A stretch of 64,000 bases of DNA from a virus. Of this stretch, positions 751 to 31,478 are shown one piece after another. Made by a program: the position numbers and the translations under genes. The stretch spans positions 78,444-142,443 of the IMG/VR virus record IMGVR_UViG_3300011113_000675; one strand, written 5' to 3'. The notes below the pieces were generated by a model. The model was not told the origin of the DNA, did no database searches, and was given only the letters and a program-made list of their open reading frames with translations. Position 1 is the stretch's first letter; each line of letters starts with the position of its first letter.

Positions 751-766
751 AATTTTTATTGTTTAG

Positions 767-840
767 AGGTCAAGAAGGGATTCGAACCCTTGGATACTTG
801 TTTTGCAGACAAGCCCCTTAAGCCACTTGGGTACTTGACC
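767..840 (-). tRNA. tRNA-Cys(GCA)
   Basis: Cloverleaf GGTCAAG/CTTGACC, anticodon arm CTTGT-CTGCAAA-ACAAG, T-loop TTCGAAT. Confidence 0.95.
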
Positions 841-846
841 GTTTTG

Positions 847-918
847 TGTGACCGAAGAGAATCGAACTCTTACATGAAGTGCCACAAACTTCCGCCCTAC
901 CATTAGGCCACAGCCACC
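847..918 (-). tRNA. tRNA-His(GTG)
   Basis: G-1 then GTGGCTG/CGGTCAC acceptor, anticodon arm GAAGT-TTGTGGC-ACTTC, T-loop TTCGATT. Confidence 0.9.
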
Positions 919-933
919 ATATAATCTTAATGT

Positions 934-1001
934 AAGTCAGGACGGGTTTCTAACCCGCTCTTCAGTTAATCACTGCGTGCTGCCATTTACACCACCTGAC
1001 T
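934..1001 (-). ncRNA. tRNA-like RNA (mimic 1), shortened anticodon arm
   Basis: Acceptor AGTCAGG/CCTGACT, D arm, T arm GCGGG-TTAGAAA-CCCGT; anticodon arm only CAGT-GATTA-ACTG. Confidence 0.65.
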
Positions 1002-1067
1002 AATTTTTAGATTTCTAAAACTCATCCCTAACGGGGTAAAGAAACTCCATCTTATTTGTTTTTTGCG

Positions 1068-1158
1068 TAGTCAGGACAGGATTCGAACCTGTAACTTTTG
1101 TCTTTTGGTTCCGAAAATCGGATTACTCACCAACACGTTACCCTTGCGTCACCTGACT
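1068..1158 (-). ncRNA. tRNA-like RNA (mimic 2), anticodon loop replaced by a bulged hairpin
   Basis: Same AGTCAGG/CCTGACT acceptor, perfect T arm ACAGG-TTCGAAT-CCTGT; central arm TTGGT-GAGTAA-TCCGA-TTT-TCGGA-ACCAA. Confidence 0.7.
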
Positions 1159-1168
1159 ATAAAGTGAA

Positions 1169-1245
1169 TGGTACTCCGTACGGGACTCGAACCCGTAAGC
1201 TCTCCCGTGAAAGGGGAGTGTCCTAACCAATTAGACGAACGGAGC
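1169..1245 (-). tRNA. tRNA-Glu(TTC), CCA encoded
   Basis: GCTCCGT/ACGGAGT acceptor, anticodon arm CTCCC-CTTTCAC-GGGAG. Confidence 0.95.
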
Positions 1246-1476: not shown

Positions 1477-1507
1477 CAAATGTATGAAATGTTTTAATTT
1501 TGTCAAA
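1477..1507 (-). promoter_or_regulatory. Bacteroidota sigmaA-type promoter for the leader peptide
   Basis: TTTG-N19-TACATTTG. Confidence 0.75.
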
Positions 1508-1554
1508 TGTTTTTTATGGATAGAACTTTTAATTCTATGCATATATTTATTATT

Positions 1555-1926
1555 ATGGAAAAAAAAGTTTGTTCAACCTGCAATGAAGAAAAACCATTGA
1601 CTGATTTTTATTTGCGCAATTCAAGAAATAATAAACCTTATGATAGATGTAAAAAATGTTTTAACCGTTATTGTGGTGACCGATGGATCACTAAAAAGAT
1701 TAACGCAATAATTTACAAAGGTTCTAAATGCCTTGATTGCTTTTTATCCTATCCTAATGAACCATATGTAATTTTTGATTTTCATCATCGTGAGCCAAAC
1801 GAAAAAGATTTCGATTGGGGTAAATTAAGATTGAAATCTGATAATACCATAAAGTCCGAATTAGATAAATGTGATTTACTATGTTCAAATTGTCATAGAA
1901 AACGACATCATTTATCTGATTTGTAG
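1555..1926 (+). CDS. HNH homing endonuclease
   Basis: CxxC zinc motifs, FDFHH...KCDLLCSNCHRKRH; start placed after TATTTAT motif; antisense within tRNA cluster. Confidence 0.85.
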   Translation: MEKKVCSTCNEEKPLTDFYLRNSRNNKPYDRCKKCFNRYCGDRWITKKINAIIYKGSKCLDCFLSYPNEPYVIFDFHHREPNEKDFDWGKLRLKSDNTIKSELDKCDLLCSNCHRKRHHLSDL

Positions 1927-5089: not shown

Positions 5090-5174
5090 CAGAGGAGGAC
5101 GGATTCGAACCCCCGTTACCTTTCAGTAAAATAGTTTTCAAGACTACCGCCATAAACCACTCGGCCACTCCTCT
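5090..5174 (-). tRNA. tRNA-Ser(TGA)
   Basis: AGAGGAG/CTCCTCT acceptor, G73, long variable arm, GTAGT-CTTGAAA-ACTAT. Confidence 0.92.
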
Positions 5175-5667
5175 ATTTTATTACTTTGTACCCAAAATTA
5201 TGTAAAACATCTTTACATAATTCTATAAATTCTTCAACACTTAAATTACCTTTAGCAAAATTTGCTTCGGGTGTTGCAACACCCAAGTTTTCAAAAGTAG
5301 ATTCACCACCCTTGGATACAGGAACAATATGGTCAAATTGATATTTAGTCACATCCGACGTATCAATTTCCCTACCCGATAAATAACATTTCGTTACTGA
5401 GTCCAAATACTCTTGGATTTTGACTCTATCGAAATATTTCGAATTATACGTTATGTTTTCACCTTTATATCTATCGATAAAGTGCTCCTGTTTTTTTAAC
5501 CAAGGATGTAGATTTCTTTGTTTTACCACTCTCTGATACGCTTTTTCTTTTTGTCCTAATCCACAATGGTATGATATTGTAGAACGAGAACATCCAAGTT
5601 CTTTTTCTATTTGTTTGTAACTTTTTCCCTCTTCCCTAAGATTTAGTATCTGTTTTTTTAATTCCAT
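5173..5667 (-). CDS. HNH endonuclease with N-terminal HTH
   Basis: [24 protein letters not shown]; [11 protein letters not shown]...NL...ANFAKG. Confidence 0.85.
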
Positions 5668-5793
5668 ACATATAAATATAAGGTTCGAAACAAAAAGATA
5701 CGAACTTAAACACAAATAATAGGAATGAGTATTTGCAACTGCCCATTCCCTTCAAAAGACCTACCCTGGTACGTTCTAGCGTGGTAAGTAATT

Positions 5794-6841: not shown

Positions 6842-7327
6842 ATGAGTACAGTATTAGTTTTGAACTCTGATTACACTCCTTTGAATGTAACAAGTGTACA
6901 GAGAGGATTTGTTTTGGTCACCAAAGGAAAGGCGGAAGTGTTAAGGTCGGATGAGAATCCAATTGTAACAGGTTACAAGACGTTTATACGACCCGTTATC
7001 ATACGCCTATTGAAATATATCAGACATAGAACAAGGCTCAATAAACCGAATCGTAGTCGTATCTATAAAAGGGACGGATATGAGTGTGTTTATTGTGGGT
7101 CAAAAAAGAATCTAACATTAGACCACGTAATACCCAAATCAAGAGGAGGTTCCAATGAATGGACAAACTTAGTTACTTGTTGCTCAAAGTGTAATAGAGA
7201 TAAGGACAACAAAACTCCTGAGGAAGCTAAAATGCTAATGAAAAAACCAGCATACGAACCACCAATAATGTATGATAATGTGGTATTATTAAATGTCTGG
7301 ACAGATTTTCAGAAATCTTTTGTATAA
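6842..7327 (+). CDS. HNH endonuclease (McrA-like, VLVLN-type)
   Basis: RDGYECVYCG...LTLDHVIPKSRGG...NLVTCCSKCNRDK; TACTTTTG box upstream. Confidence 0.9.
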   Translation: MSTVLVLNSDYTPLNVTSVQRGFVLVTKGKAEVLRSDENPIVTGYKTFIRPVIIRLLKYIRHRTRLNKPNRSRIYKRDGYECVYCGSKKNLTLDHVIPKSRGGSNEWTNLVTCCSKCNRDKDNKTPEEAKMLMKKPAYEPPIMYDNVVLLNVWTDFQKSFV

Positions 7328-31385: not shown

Positions 31386-31478
31386 TGGTGGCTGGGAGTG
31401 GGTTCGAACCACTGGCTCATCGGTGTTCACCCGATTGCTCTACCATGAATTCCGAAGAACTCCTGAGCTACCACAACC
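31386..31478 (-). tRNA. Aberrant tRNA-Phe(GAA)-like gene with D-loop hairpin insertion, CCA encoded
   Basis: ATCGG-GTGAACA-CCGAT anticodon arm, AGTGG-TTCGAAC-CCACT T arm, GAGTTC-TTCG-GAATTC inside D loop. Confidence 0.7.

Follow-up and report, generated by a model that had tools for sequence, protein, structure and literature searches.

Two anticodon-less, tRNA-shaped elements in a T4-like phage tRNA array belong to a family of exchangeable elements with diverse inserts

The transfer RNA (tRNA) array of an IMG/VR virus record (IMGVR_UViG_3300011113_000675, positions 78,444 to 142,443; this whole 64,000-nucleotide stretch is the window referred to below) contains two neighboring elements, here called A and B, that have the upper body of a tRNA but no anticodon stem-loop. 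A, recognized from its sequence, fold, and orthologues, is 67 nucleotides (nt) long (935..1001, minus strand, with nt 73 a U at 934), while B, recognized from its sequence, an alignment of homologues, and a subthreshold Rfam match, is 90 nt long (1069..1158, minus strand, with A73 at 1068). Both belong to a large viral family in which a constant, tRNA-like frame with tRNA-like flanks carries inserts ("cargos") that are mostly unrelated to one another. The stems of B-type members have evolved through compensated changes, and members have been gained, lost, or swapped as single units between closely related phages. Comparative analysis makes it probable that A and B are non-decoding, tRNA-shaped small RNA genes whose transcripts would be cut like tRNAs to give stable RNAs, with the function of B residing in its cargo.

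An earlier note, made from the letters of the window alone, had described two tRNA mimics with a shared acceptor stem, D and T arms, a truncated or replaced anticodon arm, and an intervening spacer at 1002-1067. We confirmed this anatomy and the coordinates and assigned both elements to the minus strand, which is the strand of all neighboring tRNAs. On that strand, B reads AGTCAGG-TG-ACGC-AAGGGTA-ACGT-G-TTGGT-GAGTAA-TCCGA-TTT-TCGGA-ACCAA-AAGACAAAAGTT-ACAGG-TTCGAAT-CCTGT-CCTGACT-A. Its 7-bp acceptor stem, AGUCAGG/CCUGACU (1158-1152 paired with 1075-1069), is followed by U8-G9 and by a D arm with a 4-bp stem and a 7-nt loop (1149-1135; GACGCAAGGGUAACGUG), which is not of the Leu type. The T arm (1092-1076) is a perfect ACAGG-UUCGAAU-CCUGU, identical to the family T arm ACAGGUUCGAAUCCUGU. 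The cargo (1093..1133, minus strand) replaces the anticodon and variable arms and comprises an outer stem, UUGGU/ACCAA (1133-1129 paired with 1109-1105), a GAGUAA bulge (1128-1123), an inner hairpin, UCCGA-UUU-UCGGA (1122-1110), and a tail, AAGACAAAAGUU (1104-1093). Instead of a 5-bp/7-nt anticodon arm with U33 and an anticodon, B has a 10-bp hairpin with a 6-nt bulge and a 3-nt loop; inspection of the GAGUAA bulge gave no k-turn or sarcin-ricin reading. ARAGORN made no call at B, and the Rfam tRNA model (RF00005) scored it at 19.0 bits (E = 0.37), below the gathering score of 29. The cloverleaf-like fold of B has a predicted energy of -23.3 kcal/mol versus -24.6 kcal/mol for the minimum free energy fold, a gap of 1.3 kcal/mol, and it becomes the minimum free energy fold once A22 is read as the G22 of the orthologues.

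Relatives of B were sought with cargo-anchored patterns, which recovered 11 metagenome stretches and 5 viral contigs from lake sources (at least 16 contigs). Exact patterns for the B cargo with a UUU loop and for the B D arm gave zero matches in IMG/VR, and five of the ten matches to one looser cargo pattern represented a chance match in a coding region and were excluded. Since the homologues were selected by their cargo, their tRNA frames are unbiased by the selection. When window B was aligned with 12 distinct homologues, 97.6% of stem cells across the 13 sequences were paired, and 10 pairs had changed on both sides (5 in the acceptor stem, 3 in the D stem, 1 in the T stem, and 1 in the cargo). 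None of 500 shuffles matched this result, and slid controls yielded at most 2 compensated pairs. Several G.U pairs in the B-types also fit only the minus-strand (RNA) reading. Given these compensatory changes and strand-specific G.U pairs, selection acts on the RNA fold.

The frame of the B-types varies considerably. Their acceptors include AGUUAGG/CCUAACU, AGUCAGA/UCUGACU, GGUCAGG/CCUGACC, and AGCUAAG/CUUAGCU, the discriminator is A or G, and the 1:72 pair is A-U or G-C. The cargo, GGUGAGUAAUCCG-loop-CGGAACCAAAAGAC, is the same in all 13 sequences outside the hairpin loop and one base pair, the innermost of the inner stem (columns 41/47), which is A-U, once C-G, and twice unpaired. The loop itself is 3 to 7 nt long and has no conserved sequence (UUU, UUUA, UUAG, UUAUG, and others). 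Two loci (L188 and L210) carry the B cargo on a very different frame, whose acceptor (AGCUAAG) and D arm are changed and whose T loop (GGCAGUA) is not that of a tRNA, while a sister form in locus L123 keeps the cargo flanks and replaces the inner hairpin together with GUAA. B-types are co-oriented within tRNA arrays in 14 of the 16 loci, beside differing tRNAs. These comparisons indicate that B is maintained by selection and is not a decaying tRNA. A covariance model built from the B-types scored window B at 111 bits, but it also gave ordinary tRNAs 20 to 36 bits, such that it is in effect a tRNA model and unusable as a test of family membership.

Element A reads AGTCAGG-TG-GTGT-AAATGGCA-GCAC-G-CAGT-GATTA-ACTG-AAGA-GCGGG-TTAGAAA-CCCGT-CCTGACT-T. 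Its acceptor stem (1001-995 paired with 941-935) is identical to that of B, and its D arm (992-977; GGUGUAAAUGGCAGCAC) is likewise not Leu-type. A mini-arm of 4 bp and 5 nt, CAGU-GAUUA-ACUG (975-963), offers no 7-nt anticodon loop. Next come a variable region of 4 nt and a T arm (958-942; GCGGGUUAGAAACCCGU, with loop UUAGAAA) that has diverged from the family. The predicted fold is nearly a cloverleaf (z = -3.4), and A received neither an ARAGORN call nor an Rfam tRNA match even at E values up to 10. Orthologues of A were found in nine IMG/VR loci plus locus L184 (at least 10 contigs), with a body that is identical throughout and six variable sites, namely position 26, one stem site (A-U to G.U), three loop sites, and one site in the variable region. 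The loop, which reads GAUUA, AAUCA, or AGUUA, is the fastest-changing part of A. The element is kept as a unit in different neighborhoods, either after a 66-nt spacer or directly after tRNA-His. The functional case for A is nevertheless weaker than that for B.

To delineate the family, we searched IMG/VR with a 21-nt pattern for the shared 3' half (the T arm plus the acceptor strand). This pattern occurred in more than 120 viral stretches, a lower bound, and several of these contained 2 to 8 copies. Since the 3' half recurs so widely and both A and B have orthologues, the two elements are more than a chance resemblance to tRNA. One locus (L011) holds eight copies in 3.4 kb, in which mutually unrelated middles of 20 to 130 nt lie between two constant parts, one 5' (AGUCAGG-UG-GCGGAAUGGUAGACGC, with a D arm of the tRNA-Leu type) and one 3'. 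The 143 loci that we fetched, from uncultured T4-like phages, contained at least 237 distinct elements, whose cargos fell into 195 clusters, 175 of them singletons; by inspection, the multi-member clusters show compensated changes. The acceptor AGUCAGG/CCUGACU is exact in 196 of the 237 elements, and the remainder have compensated or wobble variants. The consensus D arm of the family, GGCGGAAUUGGUAGACGC, is Leu-type, and other D-arm subtypes are also present. A and B fit the family in their location within a tRNA array, their orientation on the tRNA strand, and their non-anticodon insert between the D and T arms; nearly cargoless members exist as well, such as one of 53 nt and A itself. Programs that find tRNAs either miss the family genes or mislabel them as "tRNA-???," odd isotypes, or SeC.

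Several further architectures were observed in these arrays. Some members (e.g., those in L108, L069, and L053) have a second insert in the D loop, GGCGGAAU-[hairpin]-UUGGUAGACGC, and some cargos hold an additional T-arm-like hairpin (…GUUCGAUUC…), as T5 RNA2 does. The contig from which the window was taken (G000) carries a third tRNA-shaped element without an anticodon, ~1 kb ahead of the window (positions 77320-77477, minus strand; 158 nt), between tRNA-Ser(GCU) and tRNA-Ile. This element has a different frame, with the acceptor UGUAAGG/CCUUACA, a D arm with an insert, the T arm GAAGG-UUCGACU-CCUUC, and the trailer GCAA. Given that similar elements of 141 to 142 nt recur in L181 (1004-1145) and L210 (13529-13669, minus strand), a second type of frame exists.

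Among 185,579 prokaryotic species, each represented by one genome, the 3' half was found only on 18 contigs of metagenome-assembled genomes, all of which bear a cargo and come from freshwater; 10 of the 18 were binned with Bacteroidota. We had considered that the frame might be copied from a host tRNA, but no canonical tRNA in these species genomes has the 3' half, and this explanation was rejected. As judged from these sequence searches, the family frame is phage specific. BLAST searches of 50,697 GenBank phage records with the region, a canonical member, and the eight-copy array returned only pieces of ordinary tRNAs, and no cultured phage in this set carries the AGUCAGG frame. Literature searches, including searches with literal sequences, yielded no description of the family, and it is not in Rfam. 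The three bacterial tRNA-mimic families described in a 2026 preprint are different RNAs from the family of A and B.

The flanks of the family resemble those of true tRNAs. Among 135 elements, the most frequent bases are U at nt -1 (114), A at nt 73 (124), C at nt 74 (132), A or U at nt 75 (116, with C in 7), and A at nt 76 (100). The 173 canonical tRNAs called by ARAGORN in the same loci have C74 in 172 cases, A or U at nt 75 in 158, and A at nt 76 in 121, with leaders that are mostly AU or UU; the true tRNAs of loci L002-L121 and the window avoid C75 (3/173). The half-encoded CCA of these true tRNAs implies a particular route of 3'-end repair. Since the leader/trailer signature is common to both sets, the machinery that matures tRNAs in these phages should also act on the tRNA-shaped RNAs. 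B has U-1, A73, and C74, followed by G75 and C76, such that it matches the family signature only up to C74. A has U-1 but U73 and A74 and does not fit the signature.

The window comprises the terminal 64 kb of a 142-kb record (CheckV completeness, 46%). Since a T4-type major capsid protein is encoded on this record (Pfam Gp23, 207 bits), we consider it a fragment of a large T4-like phage. Eight tRNA genes, called by ARAGORN and Rfam, lie on the minus strand between 766 and 6718, and the site of A and B is between tRNA-Glu and tRNA-His. Directly upstream of B is tRNA-Glu(UUC) (1169..1245, minus strand; ARAGORN and Rfam), which has an encoded CCA followed by a 10-nt leader up to B. Downstream of A are tRNA-His(GUG) (846-917, minus strand) and tRNA-Cys(GCA) (766-840, minus strand), both also called by the two programs, and an open reading frame (ORF) at 442-750 begins 15 nt past tRNA-Cys. 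A and B are 10 to 17 nt from the true tRNAs. No promoter- or terminator-like sites were found between A/B and the flanking tRNAs, nor was there a terminator-like site on the minus strand from 1245 to 766.

The 66-nt spacer module between B and A (1002..1067, minus strand) recurs in at least 14 loci. In every case, a tRNA-like 3' end immediately precedes it, and A, tRNA-His, or other sequence comes next. The spacer contains a small hairpin, CCC-GUUA-GGG, and a possible micro-ORF of 11 codons; its overall fold is no better than that of shuffled sequences (z = -0.3). One variant has a compensated change in the hairpin (C-G to U-A, with the loop changed from GUUA to UUCG). Since the changes in this variant also leave the 11-codon frame open, they fit the hairpin and the micro-ORF equally well.

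Comparison of closely related phages revealed that these units are exchanged. We aligned the window with L125 and L122, which derive from phages whose neighboring protein is 92 to 96% identical. The tRNA-Glu gene, the spacer, A, and tRNA-Cys are virtually identical across the three. B is absent from L125, where A is present, and the junction falls at a TAC that is common to the 3' ends of tRNA-Glu and B. In L122, a 119-nt spacer and a 138-nt element whose cargo differs from that of B occupy the B slot. The same comparison showed the slot of tRNA-His taken by tRNA-Asn. The 119-nt inter-gene module (…GGCCGAGGUGGUUCUUGGAG…; L122:4882-5000 and L123:2440-2555) is itself conserved and stands upstream of B-types in L184, L185, L189, and L190; as a non-coding module found ahead of differing tRNA-shaped elements, it adds to the exchangeable units of these arrays. 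Given the junctions in L125 and L122 and the occurrence of the 119-nt module before other B-types, single tRNA or tRNA-like genes are exchanged with breakpoints at conserved ends. The tRNA array also contains two HNH endonuclease genes, at 5173-5715 (minus strand) and 6842-7327 (plus strand), with Pfam matches to HNH_4/HTH_38 and HNH_5, and they may drive the cassette exchange. A 139-amino-acid ORF at 1507-1926 (plus strand) has Cys/His motifs without a Pfam match and is perhaps a further HNH-type gene.

We propose that A and B would be co-transcribed with tRNA-Glu, tRNA-His, and tRNA-Cys from a phage tRNA operon. The tRNA upper body (the 7-bp acceptor stem, T arm, and D arm) would make each element a substrate for RNase P at its 5' end, while 3' trimming and CCA completion would generate the other end. 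These events would release stable RNAs of ~67 and ~90 nt (plus CCA) and would free the 66-nt spacer as well. Because the sequence of the B cargo (the 10-bp hairpin with its GAGUAA bulge, followed by AAAAGAC) is conserved on quite different tRNA frames, the cargo would most likely be a sequence-specific site for a putative protein or RNA partner. A is a minimal version that may act through its upper body alone or may be in the course of being lost. As a stretch of DNA, each gene behaves as an exchangeable cassette with junctions at its conserved tRNA-like ends. A constant top, cargos whose sequence is conserved among members of one type but unrelated from type to type, and a rapid turnover of cassettes are together best fit by a processing-and-stability frame that presents binding modules.

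Two specific ideas about the B cargo were rejected. It shares GGUGAGUAAU with a conserved segment of 16S rRNA (Escherichia coli nt 112), which raised the idea of a 16S rRNA mimic, but the match is within chance: 3.6% of shuffled B cargos match too, and 12 non-B family cargos reach 10 to 12 nt by chance. Pairing between the loop of A and the bulge of B (GAUUA/UAAUC) was also dismissed, as the A loop varies while the B bulge is constant, and A occurs without B in L125.

Several observations weigh against the interpretation of A and B as functional small RNA genes, and one alternative is that they are degenerating, functionless tRNA genes. Transcription, processing, stability, and the role of the cargo as the working part are all inferred from sequence. 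The helices of the B cargo are nearly constant (one compensated pair and two unpaired cases), and their invariance is partly imposed by the search patterns; since these helices hardly vary, the cargo hairpin rests mainly on complementarity and on the variable loop. Alone among the B homologues, the window copy has a mismatched pair in its D stem (C13.A22). A lacks C56 in its T loop and C74, a G.U pair closes its T stem, and its orthologues have three types of 3' end (CCUGACU-U, CCUGACU-C, and CCUGAC- before ACA), which leaves U, C, or nothing as the discriminator. Moreover, no double compensatory changes were found in A among its orthologues. Thus, A may be only weakly functional or degenerating, and it is to A that the degeneration model chiefly applies. 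For the pair of elements, however, we judge this model improbable. The B-types combine compensated stems with a cargo that stays conserved across many lakes and genomic contexts, while five of the six substituted sites in A are unpaired and the sixth keeps its pair (P ~0.04 by our own binomial estimate, based on 27 of 67 bases being unpaired, and not by the output of a tool), and A is kept as a unit elsewhere. The view of the earlier note that the remodeling does not look like random decay is borne out by the compensated pairs of B and by a pattern of variation in A that avoids or preserves stems.

The main alternatives are pure punctuation and decoys of the tRNA upper body. In the punctuation model, A and B exist so that RNase P and 3' tRNA nucleases can cut the long operon transcript and set free its neighboring parts, such as the 66-nt spacer and downstream mRNAs, and the excised RNAs have no further role. 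The earlier note had raised RNase P/Z punctuation as a way of releasing the spacer RNA, and this idea is plausible insofar as the family and true tRNAs have a leader/trailer signature in common (of which B keeps just U-1, A73, and C74), a tRNA-like 3' end always comes right before the conserved spacer, and the start of the ORF at 442-750 lies so close to tRNA-Cys. However, the flanking true tRNAs would already do the same job, and punctuation needs no cargo, so that by itself it leaves unexplained a B cargo that is invariant across frames and contexts; we regard it as rather unlikely. The decoy model holds that the RNAs are sponges for host factors with affinity for the upper body or the 3' end of tRNAs, such as acceptor toxins, the CCA-adding enzyme, synthetases, or EF-Tu. 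Consistent with this model, what stays constant across the family is precisely the acceptor/T/D upper body, nearly cargoless members such as the 53-nt element and A exist, and the turnover of cassettes among nearly identical phages resembles that of arms-race loci. In contrast, the discriminator and the 1:72 pair vary among the B-types, and 195 different structured cargos would go unexplained, such that we consider upper-body decoys unlikely. The idea of the earlier note that the elements are decoys for defense enzymes is not supported for anticodon-directed enzymes of the PrrC, RloC, or PARIS type, because neither element presents a 7-nt loop to anticodon nucleases and because conservation is lowest in the hairpin loops of both the A and B orthologues. 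With regard to its suggestion of synthetase ligands, the discriminator is variable in both types of element. Its suggestion of a RelA ligand also seems unlikely on geometric grounds, since these RNAs would have no anticodon with which to reach the decoding center.

Two further explanations appear still less tenable. In one, the constant ends are primarily recombination or homing handles at the DNA level, with the RNA a by-product. Cassette junctions at conserved ends and HNH genes in the array speak for it; but a T loop and a D arm would be superfluous in such handles, and the compensatory changes and strand-specific G.U pairs argue for an RNA, making this explanation very unlikely. Finally, B could be read as a decoding tRNA with a hairpin mini-intron, in which case its loop would read GAGUAA: ARAGORN calls B-type orthologues "tRNA-??? 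(agta)," and the hairpin is near the canonical 37/38 intron position. We give this reading almost no credence, since the position of U33 is occupied by A or G, the hairpin is not a bulge-helix-bulge, and the sister subtype replaces both GUAA and the hairpin. Such mini-intron splicing is not known in bacteria or phages.

If the elements are made and processed as inferred, the family would be among the largest unannotated families of phage non-coding RNAs, with hundreds of distinct versions. Building on the cargo-based interpretation of B, we raise the tentative, and less probable, possibility that the frame is a natural "tRNA scaffold" of T4-like lake phages, a constant top that recruits the tRNA-processing machinery of the cell and presents hundreds of aptamer-like modules, which the phages would trade as cassettes and use against host factors in takeover or counter-defense, with the GAGUAA hairpin of B being one such ligand with a specific partner. 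B-types would provide a good experimental entry, as their cargo is short and invariant across many lakes and frames.

Additional features of the window were noted. On the minus strand upstream of tRNA-Glu (1296-1352 and 1479-1506), there is a promoter-like TTGACA-16-TACATT followed by a strong GC hairpin and a U run. This hairpin has a weak NsiR1-like Rfam match (24 bits) and could be a terminator or attenuator ahead of the Glu-B-A-His-Cys block. A 93-nt tRNA-like gene with an encoded CCA lies isolated within an intergenic stretch at 31386-31478 (minus strand); ARAGORN labels it tRNA-SeC(tca), and Rfam makes no call. On visual reading, it is a tRNA whose D loop holds an inserted hairpin of 16 nt, GAGUUC-UUCG-GAAUUC, and whose anticodon loop is GUGAACA (GAA, Phe).

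Known RNAs with tRNA-like features share some, but not all, of the properties of A, B, and their family. Canonical tRNAs (RF00005; class II tRNA-Leu) share the acceptor, D, and T arms, the U-1 leader, and C74 with the family, whose discriminator is mostly A73. In contrast with canonical tRNAs, A and B lack an anticodon stem-loop, fall below the Rfam threshold, and lack the Leu-type D arm. Transfer-messenger RNA (tmRNA) resembles A and B in having a tRNA-like acceptor/T domain without an anticodon and is processed by RNase P, as A and B would be. However, A and B have U3-A70 rather than G3:U70, lack a tag frame and pseudoknots, and are far shorter, and ARAGORN made no tmRNA call at either element. 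The engineered "tRNA scaffold," the mascRNA of MALAT1, and the tRNA-miRNA genes of MHV68 illustrate how a tRNA shape can recruit RNase P and 3' processing and stabilize an unrelated RNA that takes the position of the anticodon arm. These systems are artificial or eukaryotic, whereas the phage case would be natural and would exist in hundreds of versions; we draw on them as analogies only.

The closest parallels come from phages T5 and T4. T5 RNA1 and RNA2 (NC_005859 misc_RNA T5s03 and T5s06) are annotated as "tRNA-like stable RNA with unknown functions." Like A and B, they lie within a tRNA cluster on the tRNA strand, and each combines a closing stem resembling an acceptor with a D-type hairpin, a T arm, and, in place of the anticodon arm, a structured insert. 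The D arm of RNA1, CCGGAAUUGGUAGACGG, is Leu-type like that of the family consensus, while RNA2 has the family T arm, GCAGGUUCGAAUCCUGU, and an internal CUCGUUCGAUUCGAG (UUCGAUU) hairpin that resembles some family cargos. Their acceptor sequences differ from those of the family, however, and they are two genes rather than a swappable series, in a phage that is not T4-like. The T4 species 1 and 2 RNAs (rnaC and rnaD) are small stable RNAs that close the T4 tRNA cluster beside the homing endonuclease gene segB. T4 rnaC ends with CCGGGUUCGAAUCCCGG and an acceptor-like strand followed by ACAA, which correspond to the T loop and trailer type of the family, although neither RNA has the AGUCAGG acceptor or a recognizable D arm and rnaD has no clear T arm. 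The B-type covariance model scored T5 RNA2 at 16 bits (E = 0.057), with ordinary tRNAs likewise scoring 20 to 36 bits in this model, and did not detect T5 RNA1, T4 rnaC, or T4 rnaD; since the model is no more specific than a tRNA model, homology of the T5 and T4 RNAs to the family is not established. The HNH genes of the window array have a parallel in segB of the T4 cluster and in hegC/hegD of the T5 cluster. As the T5 and T4 counterparts are stable RNAs known from experiment, it is plausible that A and B are also processed and stable. If this interpretation is correct, T4 species 1 and 2 and T5 RNA1 and RNA2, a 50-year-old puzzle, would extend from a few curiosities to a general phage strategy.

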